The notes below the pieces were generated by a model. The model saw only the letters and a program-made list of their open reading frames with translations, had not been told where the DNA came from and made no database searches. Both the position numbers and the translations under genes were made by a program. A stretch of DNA of 64,000 bases from an uncultured Chloroflexota bacterium (GTDB lineage Bacteria; Chloroflexota; UBA11872; VXNJ01). The stretch covers positions 109,206 to 173,205 of the forward strand of contig CAJWLF010000002.1 of assembly GCA_913043205.1 (NCBI GenBank). The letters run 5' to 3'. How positions within the stretch are numbered: position 1 is the stretch's first letter; each line of letters opens with the position of its first letter. This document shows positions 15,600 to 46,698 of this stretch, piece by piece.

Positions 15600-16220
15600 T
15601 CAGAAATCAGATGCTTTCTCCAAAAACTTTACACAATACGCACGATATTGACGAAAATTGGAACCATGCTCACGAGGCTCATGCCGTTCTAATTCCCTTA
15701 ACATCGAATCTTCACCAGATGCGATCAGCTTAGCTTTATATAGTGCATAGGCTGATTCCGGATGCGACTGCCGCAGATAATTAAATATAGATCCTGATGT
15801 CCTTTCAAAACGAGCAGTCGCTTCAGAATCCCGTGTAAAACTTTCAATTTCTCTAAGTGGACGCTTTCGGCCATGCCCCAATCGATGATCTACCTCATCA
15901 AGCATGTGTCCGTACTCACCAAGAATACTACGCAACTTACTAGCAAATTCGCTTAAACTTATTTCTCCCAAATCAGTGCTCGGACTAGACAGTGACTCTT
16001 CAACAGAGTCCCAATCTATATTAATTTGGGGATATAGCTCATGAAACTCATCTTTAAATTGAGCAGTTATTGTTGGATCCGCTCCCAAGTACGCCAGAAA
16101 TCGTGATGAACTCCGTAGTTCGTCTGAATCGCCATCAACAAGCCAGGCCACTCTGATTGTTCGCACCTTCCCACTGGGTAGGGTACGCTCTTCTCCACGC
16201 CACTCTACCTGAACACCCAT
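15600..16220 (-). CDS. hypothetical protein (206 aa, no recognisable family)
   Basis: Intact ORF packed between infC (17-bp gap) and aspS (11-bp gap) on the same strand. It is acidic/charged with no TM segments and I recognise no motifs. Confidence 0.55.
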   Translation of the reverse strand: MGVQVEWRGEERTLPSGKVRTIRVAWLVDGDSDELRSSSRFLAYLGADPTITAQFKDEFHELYPQINIDWDSVEESLSSPSTDLGEISLSEFASKLRSILGEYGHMLDEVDHRLGHGRKRPLREIESFTRDSEATARFERTSGSIFNYLRQSHPESAYALYKAKLIASGEDSMLRELERHEPREHGSNFRQYRAYCVKFLEKASDF

Positions 16221-17088: not shown

Positions 17089-19491
17089 TTGCATATAGCC
17101 CAAGCAAGCATAGCCGATAGCACACCGCGGCTGGAAAGCCCCCGGATATGTTCCATCATTTCGCACCCACTCCAAGATTCCTTAGGGCATTTTCATTTGA
17201 TACTAGAAGGCGGCACCCCACGACTATGCCAGGAATTTATACGTGTCGCATCAACAGCATACTACGCTCCTGAAACAAGGGACCCAATAGCCGGGTTAAT
17301 GAGGGCAATGCGCATGGGGTCTAGTGCTGCAGCCAGCCTCGCAGCAAGAGCCGAAGAACACTTGGACATTGGTGCAACTGGTCTGGTTACCGATGAGGGA
17401 AACTTATATGTAGCTCAACAACATCCGGCTCAGGTTTATATTCATCGAAACGGACCATTACATGCTCTTCCAAGTCTCGACTCTTCTGGAGATAAGTCGT
17501 ATAACGATGGCTTACCATTCGATCAAGACATAGAACTTTCACGAGTATCTCTTGAGCACGGGGACGTCATTGCAACAACATCATCGATCGTTGCGCGCAC
17601 TATCCGCGAACGAGAAATCCGAGGGATATTAACCCGCTACAGTCCTGAAGCTAGTGCATCACAACTAGCTTCACTAGCAGCTCAGCGCGGAGCAGGCGAT
17701 TGTGACGTACTAGTGATACAGTGGCAAGAGAATATTCCTGATTCGACAGAAGCTAGTCAAGAAAAAGATCACACTAATGCCTTGAAACAACTACCAGAAT
17801 TCGACGATTTAGATCCAAAGGATGATCCGGAAGAAAGGTTGACAGATAGCAGGCGGAGCTCAAGAAAACGTAAATCATTCATGCTGGCTTTACGAGATCT
17901 TTTTGTCGGCATACTGATTATGATTCTACTTACACCATTAACCGCGTATTCTTCCATTGCAAAAACTGTTAGGCGAGAAAAGCCGAACATTGGTGAGAAA
18001 GACGATGATGTCAGACACGTAGAAAAATCCGATTATGAACAACGTCGGGAAGCCATATCCGGAGACCCGCTAGATCTGGATGAGTTAAACAGGCAAATAT
18101 TTGATTCATCAGATAGTGAGTCAGATCGTCTGACTCCACGTTCTTGGCCAGGGTTGCCACCTGCCAAACGCGGTCGACTTTCCGGACTTTGGCCATCACC
18201 CGGAATATCAGGAGAGCCTTTGAGTTCAAAAAGCAAAAATCGTACTATAGGACCTGGGTCAGCAATTCTTTTTGCATCACTTGTTATCCTCGGAGTAGTG
18301 CTAGCTGTCTTGTTTGTGCGCAATGAACAGACGATTACACTAAACAGAGATCAGTCCGGCGAGGATGTTTCGTCAACCGCCAAACCAGAAACATCACAAG
18401 GTGACAACACCGTGGCTGCAAGTCAGAGCAAAACAACAACCTCAAGTGAATATCTCTTACGTGCTCAAGATTTCTATAAATCAGCATTAAAGGAAAAGGA
18501 TGATGCACAAGCATTACAAGCCTTACAAGATGCTGCCGATGCTGCCAATCAAGCTGGTCGAGGGGCCCAATCTACAGCGATAAAAGAAGTTAACCAGTTG
18601 CTGGCAGACATTGACAAAGAGCGCGACCGACGGAACAAGGTAGTACGCCTAGCTACGAGTGCTACTATCGGCGACTTTCCTGGCTCCGGAGTAGGAGTGG
18701 TGTCTGGAAAAGCACAACTAGAAGTTTATAACGGCCGACAATATGTGATCGATGCCGTAGTCGGTCAGGTACTTGAATTCACAAATCCTAAGATCGGAAG
18801 CACAGTTATTCGTAAAGGTACAGAAATTGGCCAAGCGGCAGCCGGAGATCCGATCGCCATAGTGGCACGAGAACAAGGGCTACTCGCAATTGATAGTCAG
18901 AAAAATATATTCAGCATTATCGCAGAAAAACCCACAGAACAATTACGGATAGTCGGAACTGAGACCTGGGTTGGCCCTGCGGCTTATGACAATTTCCAAA
19001 ACAACCTTTATGTTCTAGACCCATTCGCGAATAAGATCCACAAATACACACCAAGCACCAATGGATACACAGTTGCCCCCAGTAATTATTTCGATGAAAA
19101 AGTAGATATCGCAATAGCCATAGATTTGGCGATTGACGGTGACGTATATATATTGCTCAATGACAGTGAAATAAAACGTTATCGTGCTGGCAAAGAGATC
19201 GGATTTCGTGTTAATGGTCTTGATCGACCATTCCAAAACATCAGCCAGATTTTCACAAACTCAGATCTCACTAGCTTGTATTTGGTCGATCAAGGCAATC
19301 AGCGCATAGTTGAAATCGACAAACGTTCGAATAGATTGGGTGATTTTGTTCGGCAATTCAAGTTCCGTGGCAGTGGAGAAGAATTCTTCGAAGACATCCG
19401 TGACATTTGGGTTAGCGAATCTGAAGGACGTTTACTAGTATTAGGTAAGAATTCACTAAGACAGTTTGTACTGCCTAAATTAAACGATTGA
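17089..19491 (+). CDS. membrane protein with an N-terminal divergent PP2C/PPM-like phosphatase domain, two TM helices flanking a low-complexity charged linker, and a C-terminal NHL/YVTN-like beta-propeller
   Basis: PPM-like motifs (GATGLVTDEGNLYVAQ...VYIHRNGPLHAL; HGDVIATTSSIV; GDCDVLVIQW) with metal-binding positions partly substituted (LEGGT where DGMGG is expected). TM segments at about aa 262-287 and 390-411. The C-terminus has repeated hydrophobic-D/N...I..Y/F blades (LYVLDPFANKIHKY; LYLVDQGNQRIVEID). Start is a TTG. Confidence 0.6.
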   Translation: MHIAQASIADSTPRLESPRICSIISHPLQDSLGHFHLILEGGTPRLCQEFIRVASTAYYAPETRDPIAGLMRAMRMGSSAAASLAARAEEHLDIGATGLVTDEGNLYVAQQHPAQVYIHRNGPLHALPSLDSSGDKSYNDGLPFDQDIELSRVSLEHGDVIATTSSIVARTIREREIRGILTRYSPEASASQLASLAAQRGAGDCDVLVIQWQENIPDSTEASQEKDHTNALKQLPEFDDLDPKDDPEERLTDSRRSSRKRKSFMLALRDLFVGILIMILLTPLTAYSSIAKTVRREKPNIGEKDDDVRHVEKSDYEQRREAISGDPLDLDELNRQIFDSSDSESDRLTPRSWPGLPPAKRGRLSGLWPSPGISGEPLSSKSKNRTIGPGSAILFASLVILGVVLAVLFVRNEQTITLNRDQSGEDVSSTAKPETSQGDNTVAASQSKTTTSSEYLLRAQDFYKSALKEKDDAQALQALQDAADAANQAGRGAQSTAIKEVNQLLADIDKERDRRNKVVRLATSATIGDFPGSGVGVVSGKAQLEVYNGRQYVIDAVVGQVLEFTNPKIGSTVIRKGTEIGQAAAGDPIAIVAREQGLLAIDSQKNIFSIIAEKPTEQLRIVGTETWVGPAAYDNFQNNLYVLDPFANKIHKYTPSTNGYTVAPSNYFDEKVDIAIAIDLAIDGDVYILLNDSEIKRYRAGKEIGFRVNGLDRPFQNISQIFTNSDLTSLYLVDQGNQRIVEIDKRSNRLGDFVRQFKFRGSGEEFFEDIRDIWVSESEGRLLVLGKNSLRQFVLPKLND

Positions 19492-26655: not shown

Positions 26656-27162
26656 CTACCCTGCAGTGTTCGACGACCCTTCATCTCTACCAACAAGACT
26701 GGGCAATACAGAACGCAGTGCCTTTTGCTGGACATCATTCACATAAATGACTTCGCTTCGCACTCCTTCCTTTCCAACGAACATAATTTTTCCATTTGCG
26801 AAACGGTAATCGCTGTATCGTTCCCAATGTTTTATACGGTTTCCCCCCAAGGCAAATCCTTCTTTAAAAAAGTGATAGCGCAAAGGCACAAACAATGAAC
26901 CAAGAACAACCACCATCACCAACATCTCTCGCACAGCGTCGGTATTCGTTCTAAACGCTTCCATTCCAGGAATGATTCCAGCGCTGTTGATAGCCAGAAC
27001 TGCTAGTATGTACCATCGCGACACCAGCATCTTTTGGCCAATAGTGAGTGCTGTGTAATGGACAGGAGTTCCTCGTATCTCATCATTAAACGGACTGTGA
27101 ATCCTCAGGACCATCAGACCTAAAATTACAATTACAGCGACTAGAACTAACATAGATACCAT
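26656..27162 (-). CDS. hypothetical membrane protein (2-3 TM helices plus a small cytoplasmic/PH-like domain)
   Basis: Hydrophobic segments (MVSMLVLVAVIVILGLMVL; WYILAVLAINSAGIIPG; MLVMVVVLGSLFV). Its stop abuts the rarA stop (convergent, 0-bp gap). Confidence 0.5.
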   Translation of the reverse strand: MVSMLVLVAVIVILGLMVLRIHSPFNDEIRGTPVHYTALTIGQKMLVSRWYILAVLAINSAGIIPGMEAFRTNTDAVREMLVMVVVLGSLFVPLRYHFFKEGFALGGNRIKHWERYSDYRFANGKIMFVGKEGVRSEVIYVNDVQQKALRSVLPSLVGRDEGSSNTAG

Positions 27163-39555: not shown

Positions 39556-41529
39556 TTGAACTTAATTAATTATTTCAATCACCCGCCAAAGGAATCACGC
39601 CGAAAGCGGAGAAATAGGTCCGAAACATACGTCAGTGGAGCCACGCAAATGATACGGTCACTATTGATGGCTGTGGTTTTATTAATTCCAATGGTGGTAA
39701 GCCTATGGCCTGGATTGACGAAACCGGCAGATGCACTAGTAGCCATGTACGAACCAGATCAAGTCGTAAAATTTGTAGGGTCAGGGAGTGGGCACGGAGT
39801 GGGACTGTCTCAATGGGGAGCTCGAGGCAGAGCGCTTGAAGGGCAAAACGCCCAGCAAATAGTTGGCGCATATTATCAGGGATCCCAATTGATGCCTTAT
39901 GACACTGCTGGAACTCGCATTAGAGTGCTCATCGATGAAGCATACTTACCACCTGCTATAGATGGTTCATTTACGTCTTCCAACAAGCTACCAGGCAATG
40001 TGTACGGGTGGGGTGGGCCCTGGGCAATTGAAGGAGTTACTGGGGCCCTGCAGCCAGGAACGCGTCTCAATCTAGTATCTAACAAAGACCAGAAGTCTCA
40101 TCACGCCTATCTCTATGATCCCGCAGGACAATTGATGATTCAGTTCGGATTCCCAGGCGCACTTAAGCTAGTGTCTCTTAGCCCAGAAACCCGTATTCAG
40201 GTTTACTACAAATACACCCGTATAGTACCCGGTTCAGGAGGTACACAATTCTACGACATGTACCGTGGTGATATCTGGATCAGACAAAACGGCAAAGGGA
40301 CACTAGATACAGTTAACGAACTGGGAATCGACGATTACGTGAGGGGGGTAGTGCCTGCAGAAATGCCTCGCGACTGGCCTATGGAAGCTATAAAAGCTCA
40401 AAGTCTGGCGGCCAGAACCTATGCCCTAACAAGCCTTAACACTTCCAATCCTTGGTGGGATTTAGATGACACTACTTACTATCAACTCTATGAAGGATCT
40501 CATCGAGAACACCACATCACAAATAGCGCGGTGGAACAGACTTGGAATACCGTAATCGGATGGAATGGCCAACCCATACGCGCTTACTACTTCTCCAGTG
40601 GAGGGGGATTCACAGAAAGTGCTGGGGACGTATTCACTCAAGACCTGCCATATCTCAAAGGATTTAGGGATCATAACGCAGCAGGTCTCCCATTCGACCG
40701 AGATGCTCCAGCCGTTAAATGGGAAACCTCTGAGTTCCCTATGAAAGTAATCGAAGACATGCTCAATGAGAAAGATAATTCTCGAGTCGGAAGTCTAAGA
40801 CGAATAGATTTTAGTGATCGATCAGCAAGTGGACGTGTTAGAACCGTATTTATCGAAGGTTCCGAAACCAACCGCAAGCTCGACGCATCCTTTTTCCAGG
40901 CTATTTACAACAAGAGAACCCCCGCATCCCTCGGTGCAATGCTAAGCACAAAATTCGACGTGGAATTTGCATTCCCTCACACCCGCCCTGTCCCGCGGAT
41001 CAACATTCCAGGGCAGTCAATATATTTTGAAGAAACCGGACATAACGTCTTTTTTGGATTCAAGAAATATTTCGAACGAAACGGTGGCGTAGCTGCATTC
41101 GGGTTACCTCTAACAGAAGAATTTGATGAAAATGGAATGCGGGTGCAATACTTTCAGAAGGTACGACTCGAATACCATCCTGAGCTGGCCGGTACTCCAT
41201 ACGAGGTGCAATTAGGTCTAGTTGGAGATCAAATTGCAGCAGGCAGAAATTACGCAAAAGACACTCCTTTCATCAACAACTCTCAACATCGATATTTCGC
41301 AGAGACACAAAACTCTATTCATTTCGGATTCAAGAAATACTTCGAACGATTTGGTGGTATTGACAGGTGGGGATATCCAATATCACAAGAGGTTTTTGAA
41401 GGAGGGACTAATGTCCAATATTTTCAGCGAGGTCGTTTCGAATGGAGACCTGAACTGGGTGGAATGTTTGGCGTGTTCTCAGGCAACGTTGGTGAAGAAT
41501 ATTTACGATTGCGCGGATGGCTCAGCTAG
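39556..41529 (+). CDS. SpoIID/LytB domain protein with an N-terminal signal/anchor and two C-terminal ~60-aa tandem repeats
   Basis: SpoIID/LytB core (IDDYVRGVVPAEMPRDWPMEAIKAQSLAARTYAL; AYYFSSGGGFTE). N-terminal hydrophobic segment. Duplicated C-terminal module (...FGFKKYFER.GG...G.P...EF..G..VQYFQ...E..PEL.G). Confidence 0.85.
   Translation: MNLINYFNHPPKESRRKRRNRSETYVSGATQMIRSLLMAVVLLIPMVVSLWPGLTKPADALVAMYEPDQVVKFVGSGSGHGVGLSQWGARGRALEGQNAQQIVGAYYQGSQLMPYDTAGTRIRVLIDEAYLPPAIDGSFTSSNKLPGNVYGWGGPWAIEGVTGALQPGTRLNLVSNKDQKSHHAYLYDPAGQLMIQFGFPGALKLVSLSPETRIQVYYKYTRIVPGSGGTQFYDMYRGDIWIRQNGKGTLDTVNELGIDDYVRGVVPAEMPRDWPMEAIKAQSLAARTYALTSLNTSNPWWDLDDTTYYQLYEGSHREHHITNSAVEQTWNTVIGWNGQPIRAYYFSSGGGFTESAGDVFTQDLPYLKGFRDHNAAGLPFDRDAPAVKWETSEFPMKVIEDMLNEKDNSRVGSLRRIDFSDRSASGRVRTVFIEGSETNRKLDASFFQAIYNKRTPASLGAMLSTKFDVEFAFPHTRPVPRINIPGQSIYFEETGHNVFFGFKKYFERNGGVAAFGLPLTEEFDENGMRVQYFQKVRLEYHPELAGTPYEVQLGLVGDQIAAGRNYAKDTPFINNSQHRYFAETQNSIHFGFKKYFERFGGIDRWGYPISQEVFEGGTNVQYFQRGRFEWRPELGGMFGVFSGNVGEEYLRLRGWLS
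41017..41463 (+). repeat. intragenic tandem duplication (two ~177-nt units, period 270 nt) encoding the repeated C-terminal module of the SpoIID/LytB protein
   Basis: Units at ~41017-41193 and ~41287-41463. Nucleotide cores GGATTCAAGAAATATTTCGAACGA (41056-41079) and GGATTCAAGAAATACTTCGAACGA (41326-41349) match at 23 of 24 positions. Confidence 0.6.
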
Positions 41530-41570
41530 CTAATTAATCACTGTCAGATGTGGTACTGCTGAACCAAGAA

Positions 41571-42689
41571 TTATAAGTAGTCGGCCAAAATTGTACCTGT
41601 CAGATATTCTGATGGGATTTCTGCATCATGGCTACCAGAAGCCGGATAACGAAATTCCTTGCCCTCATAATTTCGCAATACTATCCATTCATCGTCGACC
41701 GATACCATTCTATTTGGACCTACGGTCATTTTACCTCCACCTCCTGGGGCATCGATCACATACATAGGAACCGCAAAGCCTGAAATATTACCCTGCAAAT
41801 AATTCATTATTTGCAGACCGGTACTAACATCAGTACGAAAATGATGAGTACCCTTAACCAGGTCAGCTTGGTACAGGTAGTAAGGCTTTACTCGCATTTT
41901 GAGCAATCCTAACATCAACTCTTTCATAATTTCTGGATCGTCATTCACTCCTTTCAACAAAACCGTCTGACATCCTACCGGGATACCAGCATCAATCAAT
42001 CGACCACATGCCACCGATGCTTCTTCCGTCAATTCTCGCGGATGGTTGAAGTGAGTATTCACAAAAAGCGGGTGGTATCGTTTAAGTACATCGGTTAGCC
42101 CTTCAGTTACTCGCTGAGGAAGCACGCATGGTAATTTCGTACCAATCCTCAACACCTCAATATGTGGTATGGATCGCAATTCGTTGAGAATGCGTTCAAG
42201 ATAATTATCCTCTAAGAGCAGTGGATCTCCTCCCGAAAGAAGAACGTCACGGATCTCGGTGTGCTCACGCAAATAACTGAATACATCCTGCATCTCGTTC
42301 CACGGTGGCACAGGATTTTTCCCGACCTTGCGTTTCCGAGTGCAAAACCTGCAATAAATAGCGCATGTATAAGTAACGGTAAACAAGACGCGATCTGGAT
42401 AACGATGTGTCAGATGCTTAACGGGAGAATCATCTCCATCCTCGCCTACAGCATCCTCCATGTAATACGTAGGATCATTCAATTCTTGCTCAGAAGGAAT
42501 GATCTGTTGCCATATTGGATCACCTTCTTCACGAATCAAGCTGGTGTAATAGGCATTTGAGAAAAACGGGTATAGTTTGCGTACGTTATCTATTTCGTCC
42601 TGTTTAAGACCATCTAAATCTGGAAGGTCAGAGCCGCGGCGAATATTAGAGCGCATTAGACTCTTCCACTCCGGTACTGTACTACTCAA
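41571..42689 (-). CDS. KamA-family radical SAM aminomutase (lysine 2,3-aminomutase-like)
   Basis: Characteristic CxxxCxxC cluster in KamA context (TVTYTCAIYCRFCTRKRKVG), a SAM-binding GGDPL motif (LSGGDPLLLED), and overall KamA/EpmB/EamA-like layout. 372 aa, with no C-terminal Cys-rich zinc motif. Confidence 0.85.
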   Translation of the reverse strand: MSSTVPEWKSLMRSNIRRGSDLPDLDGLKQDEIDNVRKLYPFFSNAYYTSLIREEGDPIWQQIIPSEQELNDPTYYMEDAVGEDGDDSPVKHLTHRYPDRVLFTVTYTCAIYCRFCTRKRKVGKNPVPPWNEMQDVFSYLREHTEIRDVLLSGGDPLLLEDNYLERILNELRSIPHIEVLRIGTKLPCVLPQRVTEGLTDVLKRYHPLFVNTHFNHPRELTEEASVACGRLIDAGIPVGCQTVLLKGVNDDPEIMKELMLGLLKMRVKPYYLYQADLVKGTHHFRTDVSTGLQIMNYLQGNISGFAVPMYVIDAPGGGGKMTVGPNRMVSVDDEWIVLRNYEGKEFRYPASGSHDAEIPSEYLTGTILADYL

Positions 42690-42773
42690 TACAGGAATCC
42701 TCTCGTTCCCTGAATCCGTGCATAAACTGGTGCTACCTTGGAGCCATACATCGATCTTATTTGAATAATGTTG

Positions 42774-44201
42774 TCAGTCATTGCCAACCATAACTGGAGA
42801 CATAACTGCAGTACTCATACCATGTAATATTTTGCTTGATGCAGGGCACGCAGTTGCTAACACACCAGCCAACTTTGCTTCTCCGTCTTCCACAAAATAG
42901 TACGGGGAATAACGGATGCGAGAATCAAAAACCTTAACCTCGTTTGAATCGAAGTCAAAATATTCGACCGCCAATCGTCTACTTTGTTCATACGGCTGCA
43001 GCACATAGGGAGTTGTACTGAAAGCTTGCAAAGCTTCCTGCAGCGACGAAGCCCATACATCTTGGTTCACATCATGACCAATAGTCACACCACGAGCACC
43101 CCAGGACAATTCTGAAAAACCCGATGGCTTTATAACCATTCGACGCTGCTTCTGAGTGATATTGGATAGATCAGACCACCTTCTTATTGATTTACCCGCT
43201 GTGATTAGCGGAGGAGATATCGCAGCAAACGGAGGCAGCTCAGTTGGATCCAACACCCAAGTACGCGGAATTATGTTTGATAGCACCGAGTGGGATTGAT
43301 CACCAATCTCGTGCACCCAATAATCAGTCAATTCAGGGTGATGAAATAATGCCAAAAGCAATTTCTCTTCCAATTGTGCCTTAGGGGGAGGAGATACGTG
43401 GACACGCCGGTGTCGCATCGCATGAAAAACAAAATCCACATTAGGAATATTCTTTAAGTCATGCAATTCAAAGAATCTATATAGGACATCAATTCTTTGA
43501 ACTTCCCCATTTGTATTCGTGACCAGGTCCCCTAGCTGGTAATCCAAGTCTCGAGGATGAACCAGCCTAGCGCTTACCCCAATTTTCTCCAGCCTGCTCG
43601 ACACAAGCTGCATTTCAGACCTGTATGATTCTGATTCATCAGACACCACGATGGCCACACTAGGAACATCTAATCTACAATCATCAATTAAAGCCCTTCC
43701 AAAAGCCTCTACAACTCCATCGGCAGCACCCAACAGACTGTAGCCCATGGATTTATATCCAGAAGACAGGGCATCTAAAAGCCCTATTCCTCCTGGCACA
43801 GAGTCAAGTTCAGTCGCCACTAAGTTATCCGACTCTGTAAGCATTAAATCAGGTCGAATTACAAATGGTAAGTTGGATTTCGTCCTGTTCAGCCTCCCTA
43901 ATTCCCTAACAGAATCACTCTTTCCACGATCCAGTAATTCAGATATCCAGCCCGGCTGGTGCCCGCGAACACTATCCAAATACAGTCGGTTAGACGCCTT
44001 ATAGAAACGCAAGAGGTGATTTCCCAGAGATCGAAATTTATCAGCGACATCACAAGATATCTCAATTGGCTGAGGAGATACCCGAAACGGGACCTTGGAC
44101 ACTCCTACCCCCATACCAACCTCACCAAAAAGACCGCTTTCTGGCAGTCCTGCGATCATTGCCTCCATACGCTGGGACAACTTAGATACTTCAGATTTCA
44201 A
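42774..44201 (-). CDS. hypothetical protein, possibly ATP-grasp-like (475 aa), co-directional with and immediately upstream of the KamA-family gene
   Basis: No clear family. Weak ATP-grasp-like elements (RMVIKPSGFSELSWGARGVTIG resembles the K-P...G..G phosphate-binding strand; central VAIVVSDESESY...ARLVHPRDL resembles pre-ATP-grasp/GspS-like regions). 85-bp gap to kamA. Confidence 0.45.
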   Translation of the reverse strand: MKSEVSKLSQRMEAMIAGLPESGLFGEVGMGVGVSKVPFRVSPQPIEISCDVADKFRSLGNHLLRFYKASNRLYLDSVRGHQPGWISELLDRGKSDSVRELGRLNRTKSNLPFVIRPDLMLTESDNLVATELDSVPGGIGLLDALSSGYKSMGYSLLGAADGVVEAFGRALIDDCRLDVPSVAIVVSDESESYRSEMQLVSSRLEKIGVSARLVHPRDLDYQLGDLVTNTNGEVQRIDVLYRFFELHDLKNIPNVDFVFHAMRHRRVHVSPPPKAQLEEKLLLALFHHPELTDYWVHEIGDQSHSVLSNIIPRTWVLDPTELPPFAAISPPLITAGKSIRRWSDLSNITQKQRRMVIKPSGFSELSWGARGVTIGHDVNQDVWASSLQEALQAFSTTPYVLQPYEQSRRLAVEYFDFDSNEVKVFDSRIRYSPYYFVEDGEAKLAGVLATACPASSKILHGMSTAVMSPVMVGND

Positions 44202-44706
44202 GCACTTAACTCAATCAAATTACACATTTACTTTGTCAGGAAAACCGTTTTCCCCAACAACAATACTAGCAGGTCAATCAACTTGACTATCTGAAGACCC
44301 TCAATTGTAACGCTTATACGTTAGATGATTTAGTTCGATACATGTTCTTTTTACACGGATAAAAACTTCTACAGAATCTGCCTGGATGCAGTAGGGCTCT
44401 TTATATTGACTGACGCATTAGCTCACCGATACCATAGTCATCCTAATAGTCGCCAGTATCGTCTGGGCATTCTTTGCAGTAAACAACAAACAAAACTTGT
44501 ATACATCAAAAATTGGGTGCTACAAACGACTGTGCTTCTATCAGATGCACAATGTCCAAATGCCAGATTGAGAATTTGTAAGACACAATGCACCAACTCC
44601 AAAGTTACAGCTCGCAATCACCATCAACACTGCTGATACAAAACAAAGGTGATCTCCACTGAAATCTGCGAGCAAATTTACGGTTTGCCTATTAGCTACA
44701 GCAGCA

Positions 44707-46698
44707 TTGTGTGTACTTTCAGCGTGTGAAGTTTTCGTATCCACGGTGGCCCCAACGCCCACTCTAGTAAGCCAGGCTAACACTGGAACTAGAGTGATGA
44801 CCGACGTAAAGAAGGGGCTAGTCGAAGAAGCAATCAGATCCACAGGGCGGCTAGAGGCCGATAAACGGGAAGATCTGTTCTTTCGTGCACCCGGAAGAAT
44901 AAAAGATATTGCAGTTCGACAGGGAGATTTGGTGAAAACAGGCCAGATACTCGCAGAGTTAGAATTGGGTGGATTGGAATCTCAAGTTGCTGACGCTAAG
45001 AAGGCGTTCGAGACTACGGATCTGCGGGTAAAGTCTGCCGAGTCAGCTCTAAGTGCAGCTCGCTCTGCTGCCACACAGGCATGGTTACTCGCTGAAAACG
45101 ATGCGATATTCCGTAACCAGTCATTGAAAGACTTGCAGAATGGAGGAAACCCTGCAGATGTGGGCTTGGCTGAAGCAGCGGTAGCAAAGGCTTCAATAGC
45201 CTTAATCGACGCACAACGAAAATATGATTCATTGATAGCCGCCGGAGCGTTGTCTGATAAAGCAGCATCGAGTACAGCAGCTCAAATGGAAGCAAATAGA
45301 GTAAAAGCCGCACAAGAAACCGAAGGGATTCGAGCCCGTAAAAAACCCAGCCTAGAGAGTGCCAAAGTCGAAGCCAGCAAAAGATTAACCGAATTGGAAT
45401 CGGCAAGAGACGAAGCCTTGACGGCATTTTACGAGTCAGAGAAGTCGCTTGAAGACACCCTAAACCAACCGACAGCATCCGCTAAAAGAGATGCTGAAGT
45501 AATATTCGAGAAGGCTAAACTTACCCATCAAGAAGTGATAGGTGGGAGTGGTTCAACAGAGAAGAAACAGAAAGCTGAATTAGATTTCCAAGAGGCCACC
45601 CGAACTTACAACGATTCTCTTTTGCCAGCAAGTGCTGCTGAGATAGCAAAAGCAAAGACAGCCGTGACTACTGCCAGATCGGCATCTACCAAAGCCGCTA
45701 ATAATCTAGCGGAGGCCTTGGGCAACGGGTCACGCCAACAAGCGATAGATCGACTAGCGATACAGGTGCAAGGCGAATACGACGATGAACTGGCTATTGC
45801 GGAAGCAGCTGAGCTAACGGCCACTCTAGCGGCCGAATCCGCATTGCTAGATACAAAAGATGTTTCTGCAGGTCTCGGCACGGCTGAGTTACAGAAAGTC
45901 CGTTACGGATTAAATGAAGCCCGTGCAACTCTTTCAAAAACAAAAGAGCAATTGCGTAAGTTGAATAGCCCGACTGAAGACGAGCTTCAGGTCGCGAAAA
46001 ACCTAGCATTAGCCGCCGAAACCAAACGTAAAGATACTAAGCAAAAAGTTGAACAGTATGAGTCAAAAACATCTTCCAAAGACATGGACCTGATAATTCT
46101 TCGTAATAGTCGCGATCAAGCTCGAATAAAATTGGAGCGATTTCAAGAACAAGAATTTGAGAATCAGATTATTGCTCCGTTTGATGGGGAGATCACATTC
46201 GTCCAGGGCAAGGCTGGAGACCAGGTGGCTGCATACAAAGAAATTATCGGATTGGCAGACCAGGGCAAATTGGTCGTCGAAGCCCTGATTGCAGAGGTAG
46301 ATCAACCGTCACTGTCTGTAGGACAGGCTGTGGAAGTAGTGCTCGATGCATTCCCAGGGCAAACATTTGAAGGCAAGGTAGCATCACTGCCTCGAAACAT
46401 AGTTAGTAGTACCGGTCAATCGGTAAAAGTTCCAGAAACTAAATTTAACGTCGATTTGGGCACCGCCCCTGCCGAGCTTGGAATGCTCGCCAGGCTCAAA
46501 ATAACCATAGAAGTCAAAGACAACGTTCTTTTAGTTCCCATCAGCGCTGTCCGAACAGTGAACCGCAGGGAATTTGTCGAAACAGTAATAGATGGACAAA
46601 GAAGAAGCTTACCGGTCACCACCGGTATTAGAAGTGATTTAGATGTGGAGATAGTGAATGGCCTTGAGGAAGGAATGTCAATCTTCGCTGCCCCTTAG
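44707..46698 (+). CDS. efflux transporter periplasmic adaptor (HlyD/MFP family) lipoprotein with an unusually long (~400 aa) coiled coil; translation probably initiates upstream at the CTG at 44659
   Basis: C-terminal MFP beta-barrel/MP domains (IIAPFDGEITFVQGKAGDQVAA...; LLVPISAV). Huge A/E/K-rich coiled-coil region. The upstream in-frame sequence LKSASKFTVCLLATAALCVLSAC is a textbook lipoprotein signal with an LSAC lipobox, preceded by an AGGTGA SD 6 nt before the CTG. Confidence 0.8.
   Translation: MCVLSACEVFVSTVAPTPTLVSQANTGTRVMTDVKKGLVEEAIRSTGRLEADKREDLFFRAPGRIKDIAVRQGDLVKTGQILAELELGGLESQVADAKKAFETTDLRVKSAESALSAARSAATQAWLLAENDAIFRNQSLKDLQNGGNPADVGLAEAAVAKASIALIDAQRKYDSLIAAGALSDKAASSTAAQMEANRVKAAQETEGIRARKKPSLESAKVEASKRLTELESARDEALTAFYESEKSLEDTLNQPTASAKRDAEVIFEKAKLTHQEVIGGSGSTEKKQKAELDFQEATRTYNDSLLPASAAEIAKAKTAVTTARSASTKAANNLAEALGNGSRQQAIDRLAIQVQGEYDDELAIAEAAELTATLAAESALLDTKDVSAGLGTAELQKVRYGLNEARATLSKTKEQLRKLNSPTEDELQVAKNLALAAETKRKDTKQKVEQYESKTSSKDMDLIILRNSRDQARIKLERFQEQEFENQIIAPFDGEITFVQGKAGDQVAAYKEIIGLADQGKLVVEALIAEVDQPSLSVGQAVEVVLDAFPGQTFEGKVASLPRNIVSSTGQSVKVPETKFNVDLGTAPAELGMLARLKITIEVKDNVLLVPISAVRTVNRREFVETVIDGQRRSLPVTTGIRSDLDVEIVNGLEEGMSIFAAP

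Follow-up and report, generated by a model that had tools for sequence, protein, structure and literature searches.

On the minus strand of a marine Chloroflexota window, i.e. the whole 64-kb stretch of DNA that was analysed, a 475-aa ORF (42774..44201) is followed by a 372-aa gene of the KamA family (41571..42689). With a rough probability of 0.6, the two genes form a two-enzyme module for a beta-lysine amide conjugate, in which the KamA homolog would make beta-lysine and an ATP-grasp enzyme would then ligate it. The product is probably a beta-lysine conjugate without prior description. A pathway of aminomutase plus ligase that joins a beta-amino acid had been proposed in a sequence-only reading of the locus, and the fold of the ligase, the class of the KamA homolog, and the conserved linkage of the two genes all support it.

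Both ORFs of that reading were found on the minus strand, and the pair is laid out as follows.

42774..44201, minus strand: 475-aa stand-alone ligase of an unnamed family, with a predicted circularly permuted ATP-grasp fold.
42690..42773, minus strand: 84-bp spacer between ligase and KamA; an RBS-like GAGAGGA stands 8 nt ahead of the TTG start codon of KamA, and there is no terminator-like hairpin.
41571..42689, minus strand: 372-aa KamA-family radical-SAM/PLP enzyme, predicted lysine 2,3-aminomutase (Pfam, NCBIfam, match to 2A5H).
44202..44706, no strand assigned: divergent intergenic region, common to the HlyD-like/FtsX/ABC export operon, with lower GC; presumed promoter region of the pair.

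TTG is the listed start codon of both ORFs. In identical contigs from TARA Oceans, genes had been called independently, again with products of 475 aa and 372 aa; the start of the ligase is uncertain because one Tara call begins at Met12 (44168), giving a product of 464 aa. The spacer measures 84 bp, and not the 85 bp noted earlier. No terminator was predicted in the scan of 42690..42773, which is consistent with co-transcription, and the two genes are probably transcribed together from the AT-rich divergent region. The GC content of this region is 38-42% (0.385-0.42), compared to ~45-50% in the flanking genes. Its lower GC agrees with the earlier description, and the length of 505 bp given there holds if the HlyD-like gene starts at 44707, while other gene calls result in ~545-595 bp. 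The promoter of the pair was not located, because a simple scan of the divergent region gave no minus-strand sigma-70-like match. A riboswitch or leader was rejected, as 41300-45000 has no Rfam match and the upstream DNA is unconserved among Chloroflexota relatives. The neighbours of the pair are SpoIID-like, MR_MLE, and HlyD/FtsX/ABC genes. The absence of the usual KamA partners could be extended to the rest of the 64-kb window, which contains no EpmA-like aaRS paralog, no GNAT, and no kamDE/kdd/kce genes. Specifically, no GNAT of the AblB type is present among the window ORFs of at least 150 aa, and the sole class-II D/K/N synthetase proved to be a complete AspRS that includes a GAD domain.

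The 475-aa protein had been suspected to be an ATP-grasp-like ligase that fits no family. Both parts were borne out, the first one by an AF2 structural model. A Foldseek search with this model had eukaryotic glutathione and homoglutathione synthetases as top matches (E values of 5e-18 to 1e-15, TM 0.66), and the model shows the protein to have the three-dimensional fold of the circularly permuted ATP-grasp ligases (GspS / eukaryotic GS / CP_ATPgrasp superfamily). Pfam gives nothing above threshold, the best match being PF14403 with 12.4 bits versus a cutoff of 32. Sub-threshold matches to PF14403, PF04174, and PF03738 were obtained for 9, 4, and 3 of 46 homologs, respectively, and PF03917 was matched by none of the 46. 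A profile search of the PDB retrieved nothing, and identification of the family by sequence search (Pfam, NCBIfam, PDB sequences) was abandoned with sub-threshold or spurious matches only. Two segments contain candidate catalytic residues.

43077..43142, minus strand: RMVIKPSGFSELSWGARGVTIG, residues 354-375, a strand ending in the invariant K358-P-S-G, then a glycine-containing loop.
43803..43811, minus strand: E-L-D, residues 131-133 within ATELDSVPGG, candidate Mg2+-ligand acidic residues.

The first segment is one of two strings quoted in the sequence-only reading; the other one, TYTCAIYCRFCTRKRK, was found in the KamA homolog. K358, S360, G361, W367, G368, G371, and G375 are invariant in the 46 homologs, and the model has a strand at 355-359, then a loop. 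Judged from its sequence, the segment would be the phosphate-binding flexible-loop motif of ATP-grasp enzymes: K358-P-S-G...G resembles K364-PQREGGG of human GS, and the K358-P-S-G segment presumably also resembles VKPSREGSSVG of DdlB. In the second segment, E131, D133, P136, G137, and G138 are invariant in the same homologs, and the model puts them where strand 127-133 ends. Acidic and aromatic residues that are likewise invariant are E189, E196, E245, D248, E278, E279, W295, W315, D318, D377, W383, and D416. E131-x-D133 resembles E144-I-N146-TISASFGG of human GS, the sequence of which was verified; we take E144 and N146 of human GS to be Mg ligands. The mapping of catalytic residues rests on motif resemblance, because the hhalign alignment of the family profile to human GS, which places residues 354-375 on K364-PQREGGGNN, is not significant (probability 0.1) and unusable for this purpose. 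From the fold and the invariant motif residues we infer that the protein is an ATP-dependent carboxylate-amine ligase.

The ligase family is sizeable, with ~400 clusters when grouped at 50% identity and >7,400 when grouped at 90%; it comes from at least 10 phyla and has neither a Pfam or NCBIfam model nor a name from any source. It occurs in Nitrospira and Nitrospina nitrite oxidisers, in marine and sponge-associated Chloroflexota, in Poribacteria, Latescibacterota, and Eremiobacterota, and in habitats that include soil, freshwater, sponges, the sea, and digesters. Domain fusions were sought in vain: the longest members carry no extra Pfam domain, and the additional residues at their N-termini appear to stem from wrongly called starts.

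The KamA homolog has Pfam matches above gathering to LAM_C (3.9e-17, 63 bits) and Radical_SAM (4.8e-11, 43.6 bits), and it passes the KamA subfamily model TIGR00238 (285.1 bits versus a cutoff of 199.2). The ranking of the NCBIfam models is AblA (436 bits), Glu-2,3-AM (387), Arg-2,3-AM (333), and EpmB (231). The AblA/LAM model TIGR03820 is thus the best-scoring one, yet its equivalog cutoff of 525.4 is not reached with 436.1 bits, and the same is true for the EpmB equivalog TIGR03821 (230.8 bits, cutoff 369.3). The match to the L-lysine 2,3-aminomutase structure 2A5H has an E value of 3.7e-102, and a residue-by-residue alignment to it located the following sites.

42342..42365, minus strand: C109-x3-C113-x2-C116, the [4Fe-4S]/SAM cluster motif, then R118.
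41730..41864, minus strand: D276 (CsLAM D293) to D313 (D330) and K320 (K337).

The three cysteines correspond to C125/C129/C132 of 2A5H, and CxxxCxxC is kept in all 37 ligase-linked KamA genes. R118 aligns to CsLAM R134, presumably the ligand of the substrate alpha-carboxylate. We further assume that D293 and D330 of CsLAM bind the epsilon-ammonium group of lysine and that K337 is the PLP Schiff-base lysine. The equivalents of R118, D276, D313, and K320 are kept in all 35 full-length ligase-linked KamAs. The Zn site of CsLAM is missing, with a D at the position of C268 and no C-terminal CxCxxC, as is the C-terminal oligomerisation domain, the homolog ending at 372 aa versus 416. By these residues and scores, a lysine 2,3-aminomutase that makes beta-lysine is the most likely identity of the homolog.

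The linkage of the two genes was estimated from 80 genome and 80 metagenome loci, retrieved with the 475-aa protein as the sole query. A same-strand KamA gene lies within ~2 kb of the ligase in 40 of the 80 genome loci and in 41 of the 80 metagenome loci, and the pairing is far beyond chance. Its conservation in relatives, a point on which the sequence-only reading depended, extends to about half of the 160 loci and at least five bacterial phyla. The KamA gene is located directly downstream of the ligase in nearly all Nitrospirota, in Nitrospinales, in some Chloroflexota and Bacillota, and in one Armatimonadota. In about the other half of the loci no KamA lies within 8 kb of the ligase; this includes all of 21 Poribacteria, 5 Latescibacterota, and 6 Eremiobacterota/Vulcanimicrobiota/Dormiibacterota. 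A common partner in the KamA-less loci was sought and rejected, as the neighbours are only lineage-specific, i.e. a PhyH dioxygenase and SerA in Poribacteria, a LarE-like PP-loop protein and Def in Latescibacterota, and a class-V aminotransferase in soil lineages. Across the surveyed loci, the pair has no constant companion that encodes a transporter, a regulator, or a second biosynthetic enzyme.

These KamA-less loci, and the lack of a common partner in them, would be compatible with a linkage that has no function, so that the ligase substrates would be unrelated to beta-lysine and KamA would feed something else, e.g. an osmolyte. Members of the same KamA clade without this ligase adjoin Ddl-like ligases and a GNAT, which points in the same direction. 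A Ddl-like ATP-grasp accompanies KamA in Limnochordia-like Bacillota, Acidobacteria, and archaea; neither the window nor any of the 80 metagenome loci contains one. We regard a non-functional linkage as quite unlikely, because the adjacency recurs in five phyla and three gene orders, with both genes invariably on one strand and either overlapping or only a short gap apart. In addition, genome-wide co-occurrence was looked at in two Chloroflexota MAGs, and non-adjacent ligase and KamA genes can share one genome and are then still only 11-20 kb apart in multi-megabase chromosomes. In the full texts found, a pairing of an aminomutase with an ATP-grasp ligase is not described; the amidoligase survey of Iyer et al. 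2009 was outside this scope.

In the proposed module, the radical-SAM/PLP enzyme would convert L-lysine to beta-lysine (3,6-diaminohexanoate), as suggested by its sequence. The 475-aa ligase would then activate a carboxylate with ATP, as an acyl-phosphate, and couple it to an amine, a chemistry suggested by the fold and the invariant motif residues. The conserved operon linkage points to beta-lysine as a substrate of the ligase, which may be either the amine attacking the activated carboxylate or the compound whose own carboxylate is activated. A soluble small-molecule conjugate seems to us more likely than a modified protein, because small molecules are the substrates of all the closest structural relatives for which a substrate is known (GS, hGS, GspS, trypanothione synthetase, and Cp1B) and no gene for a protein substrate is linked.

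AblA/AblB, the lysine 2,3-aminomutase and beta-lysine N-epsilon-acetyltransferase of the N-epsilon-acetyl-beta-lysine osmolyte pathway of methanogens, is likewise a two-gene unit: a LAM-type KamA is the source of beta-lysine, on which the partner then forms an amide. In contrast, the partner here is an ATP-dependent ATP-grasp ligase and not an acetyl-CoA-dependent GNAT, the pair is not confined to saline habitats, and the KamA homolog stays below the AblA equivalog cutoff. With EpmB/EpmA (YjeK/PoxA) the pair shares a KamA paralog that would feed beta-lysine to an ATP-dependent ligase forming a beta-lysyl amide. However, EpmA is a class-II LysRS paralog that works via an acyl-adenylate, whereas an acyl-phosphate is expected for an ATP-grasp partner, the KamA homolog is not of the EpmB type, and no efp gene is linked.

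The EpmB/EpmA precedent, to our knowledge the only housekeeping use of a KamA paralog outside of osmolyte synthesis and fermentation, nevertheless raises the question of protein beta-lysylation. The ATP-grasp enzyme would then be a non-homologous replacement of EpmA, and the lysine to which it attaches beta-lysine would belong to EF-P or to some other protein of translation or of the ribosome, in phyla without a known EF-P modification. The occurrence of the ligase family in many phyla and habitats would suit a housekeeping role, some ATP-grasps (RimK, TTLL) modify proteins, and the KamA gene adjoins a Peptidase_M24 gene in one Poribacteria MAG. This is distinctly unlikely, as a tblastn search for efp with E. 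coli EF-P was negative for the window and for ~90 loci, and the LAM/AblA type of the KamA homolog as well as the small-molecule relatives of the ligase also argue against it.

The preferred reading, a small-molecule conjugate, places the 475-aa protein beside three groups of ligases. Eukaryotic-type glutathione and homoglutathione synthetases have a similar length and domain order, and homoglutathione synthetase also joins a beta-amino acid (beta-alanine onto gamma-Glu-Cys), but identity is only 12-15%, there is no GSH_synth_ATP Pfam match, and the linked genes include none for a gamma-Glu-Cys ligase. Glutathionylspermidine synthetase and E. coli YgiC/YjfC are 11-12% identical to the protein, which has GSP_synth and CP_ATPgrasp matches below threshold, no amidase domain, and KamA as its genomic partner. 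Cp1B (PDB 9cjn; PMC12568646), which serves as ATP-grasp ligase in the biosynthesis of E-64 by fungi, belongs to fungal secondary metabolism, shares 12% identity, and has no aminomutase partner.

A gene for a CPxC glutaredoxin/GST_N_3 protein lies between ligase and KamA in 38 of the 80 metagenome loci and in 16 genome loci (Nitrospirota, Nitrospinales), and in Nitrospirota it usually separates the two. The idea that it encodes a carrier protein (compare LysW or a ubiquitin-like tail) was dropped because its C-termini are variable. In the Nitrospirota and Nitrospinales units, it probably gives thiol-redox support. It is a tentative thought, and an unlikely one, that the pair and the glutaredoxin-like protein of these two groups make a previously unknown housekeeping molecule. 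Its most striking form might be a glutathione-like low-molecular-weight thiol capped with beta-lysine, and an equally novel alternative would be EpmA-independent beta-lysylation of EF-P by an ATP-grasp enzyme. A ligase that adds beta-lysine to a cysteine-containing acid, yielding a new thiol used by the linked glutaredoxin-like protein, would fit the top Foldseek matches and the presence of the CPxC gene in many ligase-KamA loci; we consider it very unlikely.

Glutamate, arginine, or ornithine as the substrate of the aminomutase, so that the ligated beta-amino acid would not be beta-lysine, could account for the missed AblA cutoff (436 versus 525), the 387 and 333 bits of the glutamate and arginine models, and the missing Zn-site cysteines, but is highly improbable, since both epsilon-ammonium aspartates are kept in every linked KamA, where glutamate 2,3-aminomutase is said, in work of Ruzicka and Frey from 2007, to have Lys and Asn (at CsLAM D293/D330), and since AblA is the best-scoring model for all members of the KamA clade tested.

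The fates of beta-lysine known to us are acetylation to an osmolyte, attachment to EF-P, fermentation, and incorporation into NRPS antibiotics; we know of no ATP-grasp route. Thanks to the conserved operon, a “hypothetical protein” becomes an enzyme that can be tested directly and for which a first substrate is likely, and the pair points to an undescribed metabolite or modification in ecologically important, mostly uncultured lineages. If the thiol reading were true, its users would be nitrite oxidisers, Chloroflexota, and several phyla that have been little studied. In the GspS/eukaryotic-GS fold class, where the PDB still lists E. coli YgiC only as a putative acid-amine ligase, the ligase family would form a prokaryotic branch to which a role can be assigned.

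The 475-aa protein and the KamA homolog are encoded by two genes in head-to-tail orientation:

42774..44201, minus strand: ORF of the 475-aa protein, a candidate ATP-grasp ligase, first gene of the pair
41571..42689, minus strand: ORF of the 372-aa KamA homolog, second gene of the pair

The genes are separated by 84 bp, with an RBS-like GAGAGGA ahead of the second start, and no terminator-like hairpin was found in the spacer. The same genome region is represented by TARA Oceans contigs as long as 212 kb, on which the gene calls (475 aa and 372 aa) are identical; one Tara call starts the 475-aa gene at Met12. Upstream of the ligase gene, an intergenic stretch of ~505 bp (GC 38-42% versus ~45-50% in the flanks) is shared with a divergent HlyD-like/FtsX/ABC export operon. 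The remaining window genes are ordinary chromosomal housekeeping genes (RecO, aminoacyl-tRNA synthetases, UvrB/C, IF3, NadB/C, RuvAB, Der, PlsY/PlsC, Cmk, IDH, PurE, Lgt), and the annotated rest of the window contains no EpmA-like paralog, GNAT or lysine-fermentation genes. The sequence-only reading, i.e. a two-gene operon that lacks the usual KamA partners and shares an AT-rich divergent region with an efflux operon, was thus correct.

No curated family accommodates the 475-aa protein: its top Pfam match was CP_ATPgrasp_2 with 12 bits, neither NCBIfam nor a profile search of PDB sequences gave a match, and the protein fails sequence membership of every curated ATP-grasp family. Sub-threshold matches to CP_ATPgrasp_2, CP_ATPgrasp_1 and GSP_synth were the only recurring functional matches among 46 homologs. 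The homologs from a database search, clustered at 90%, number more than 7,400, and all named ones are “hypothetical protein”. With a limit of E<=1e-30, an exhaustive profile search yielded 398 clusters (50% identity), rising to 1,950 at E<=1e-3; no domain fusions were found. An AlphaFold2 model based on the 46-sequence alignment was confident (pLDDT 90.4, pTM 0.91). In a Foldseek search against the PDB, eukaryotic glutathione and homoglutathione synthetases ranked highest (E 5e-18 to 1e-15, TM 0.66), followed by the E-64 ligase Cp1B, Mfla_0391, YjfC/YgiC, glutathionylspermidine synthetase and trypanothione synthetase. This ranking indicates that the predicted fold is a circularly permuted ATP-grasp of the GspS/eukaryotic glutathione synthetase (GS) class, as the earlier ATP-grasp-like guess had implied, at 11-15% identity to such structures. 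Invariant in the family are E131-x-D133 within ATELDSVPGG and K358-P-S-G followed by a glycine-containing loop, which resemble E144-I-N146-TISASFGG and K364-PQREGGG of human GS (sequence verified against 2HGS). Because hhalign paired the K-P loop and the next YVLQ/YILME strand without statistical significance, the catalytic residues can be mapped onto GS only as putative equivalents.

The 372-aa protein contains the Pfam domains LAM_C and Radical_SAM and exceeds the cutoff of the KamA-subfamily model (285 bits versus 199). The lysine 2,3-aminomutase model AblA ranked first with 436 bits, followed by glutamate 2,3-aminomutase (387), arginine 2,3-aminomutase (333) and EpmB (231), each score being below its equivalog cutoff. 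The match to the crystal-structure sequence of Clostridium subterminale lysine 2,3-aminomutase (CsLAM, 2A5H) had an E-value of 3.7e-102, and a residue-by-residue alignment showed that C125/C129/C132, R134, D293, D330 and K337 are all retained. In CsLAM, R134 binds the alpha-carboxylate, D293 and D330 the epsilon-ammonium group, and K337 PLP. Asp takes the place of the Zn ligand C268, and the protein lacks the C-terminal CxCxxC segment. All 35 full-length KamA genes adjoining homologs of the 475-aa protein show the same retained lysine and cofactor residues and the same altered Zn site. The leading LAM model and the retained residues let us read the protein as a predicted short-form lysine 2,3-aminomutase, which would make beta-lysine. 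Affiliation with EpmB, a possibility that had been left to be checked, was rejected from the model ranking. In glutamate aminomutase, Lys and Asn replace the two epsilon-ammonium aspartates; this identity was rejected since the D293/D330 equivalents are kept.

Conservation of the pairing was analyzed with the 475-aa family as the only bait, which recovered 80 loci in GTDB species genomes and another 80 in metagenomes. A KamA homolog lies just downstream on the same strand at 40 and 41 of them, respectively. The genome loci with adjacency are 31 of 33 in Nitrospirota (both exceptions end right after the bait gene), 5 of 9 in Chloroflexota, 1 of 3 in Bacillota, and 1 of 1 each in Nitrospinales and Armatimonadota; the values are 0 of 21 for Poribacteria, 0 of 5 for Latescibacterota, and 0 of 6 for Eremiobacterota/Vulcanimicrobiota/Dormiibacterota. 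The order is ligase-KamA in Chloroflexota, Bacillota and Armatimonadota, ligase-glutaredoxin-like-KamA in Nitrospirota and Nitrospinales (38 of 80 metagenome loci), and Ddl paralog-KamA-ligase with overlapping stops in Limnochordia-like Bacillota. Recurrence in five phyla with rearranged gene order indicates selection for the linkage. Two Chloroflexota MAGs that lack adjacency have both genes on a chromosome of ~3 Mb, at distances of 11 and 20 kb, and in a Poribacteria MAG a KamA from the clade of the window's protein is encoded at another site; no alternative common partner was found at the KamA-less ligase loci. That the two proteins act without functional coupling is, taken together, unlikely.

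KamA proteins 55-60% identical to that of the window also occur without this ligase type. Their neighbours in Acidobacteria are a small GNAT gene and two genes for Ddl-paralog ATP-grasp proteins; in ANME/Methanomicrobia-type archaea, an AdoMet_dc-like gene and a Ddl paralog accompany a 516-aa KamA. These Ddl paralogs share 46-53% identity with that of the Bacillota three-gene cluster. Enzymes of differing folds that form amide bonds are thus recurrently coupled with this aminomutase clade; this fits a beta-lysine made in order to be ligated.

Three observations underlie the proposed module: the LAM-type enzyme looks intact, motif residues are strongly conserved in its ATP-grasp-fold partner, and the operon linkage extends across phyla. 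The KamA homolog would isomerise lysine to beta-lysine, the ligase would form an acyl-phosphate on one carboxylate, and this would be coupled to an amine, beta-lysine being one of the two partners. We assign a confidence of 0.6 to this module as a whole, with a soluble conjugate favoured because small molecules are the substrates of all structural relatives whose substrates are known, and no gene for a candidate protein substrate is linked to the pair. The same relatives, together with the absence of efp from ~90 loci, make an EpmA-like beta-lysylation of a protein by a non-homologous ligase quite unlikely. A glutathione-like thiol capped with beta-lysine, an alternative suggested by the GS-like fold and by a CPxC glutaredoxin/GST_N_3 gene in the cluster, appears improbable. 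The glutaredoxin-like gene, which both the window and the non-Nitrospirota versions lack, may have other explanations: a dCTP deaminase gene follows the cluster in Nitrospiraceae, so a link to nucleotide metabolism or Fe-S upkeep is possible. An aminomutase substrate other than lysine is very improbable.

An aminomutase with an amide-forming partner is also found in AblA/AblB and EpmB/EpmA; in contrast to the GNAT AblB and the aaRS paralog EpmA, the partner here is an ATP-grasp protein with putative acyl-phosphate chemistry. No paper describing an aminomutase linked to a ligase of this type was found in the part of the full-text literature covered by our survey. We rate the enzyme family and the pairing as new, and the synthesis and subsequent ligation of a beta-amino acid as a familiar theme. 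The product is likely an undescribed metabolite or modification. For this widespread “hypothetical” family, which occurs in Nitrospira, Nitrospina, Chloroflexota and several candidate phyla, beta-lysine is a testable first substrate.

Several neighbouring genes were also recorded. At six KamA-less loci (L026, L038, L044 of Latescibacterota, L123, L142, L152), a LarE-like PP-loop ATPase gene (~280-370 aa) lies directly downstream of the ligase gene on the same strand, followed in Latescibacterota, L142 and L152 by a peptide deformylase-sized gene. In Nitrospiraceae, a divergent gene directly upstream of the ligase gene (L028, L046, L054, L060, L069, L077, L080, L081, L083, at ~6.1-7.7 kb; also 27 of 80 metagenome loci, e.g. 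L104 5203-6705) encodes a ~500-aa protein with a CxxCxxCC zinc/iron-chelating domain fused to LPG_synthase_C, the aminoacyl-tRNA-dependent lysyl-transferase domain of MprF. Its position may reflect lineage synteny, yet it is another lysine-related transferase at this site. In the Limnochordia-like loci, the three-gene cluster has a hemerythrin/DUF438 gene and a gene for a CoA-disulfide-reductase-like Pyr_redox_2 plus rhodanese protein nearby (L005 771-2405, L175 1715-3355), which may represent redox context or coincidence. The Acidobacteria cluster (L089 3427-7086, also L090) comprises two Ddl-paralog genes, a 154-aa GNAT and a 361-aa KamA, a length shared by many soil KamA matches; the genes overlap or nearly abut, and the cluster appears to encode a distinct beta-lysine peptide or acyl pathway that is uncharacterised. 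The archaeal cluster (L091 4043-7551, also L092; Halobacteriota/ANME-type MAG) includes a small ORF and adjoins an IS91-type transposase, and its KamA narrowly passes the AblA cutoff (528.5 versus 525.4).

Within the window, no Pfam match at E<=1e-5 was obtained for ORFs of 800, 206 and 168 aa at 17089-19491 (+), 15600-16220 (-) and 26656-27162 (-), amid well-annotated housekeeping genes. Convergent with the KamA gene is a gene for a 657-aa SpoIID-domain protein (39556-41529, +), which has two copies of a ~55-aa module without a matching Pfam family in its C-terminal part (…FGFKKYFER.GG…G.P…E……VQYFQ…R.E..PE). GC upstream of the ligase gene (44202-44706) is 39%, versus 50-69% in the Chloroflexota relatives L007, L009, L010, L012 and L093, which have the FtsX/HlyD-ligase synteny in common with the window, so the window lineage is markedly lower in GC content.
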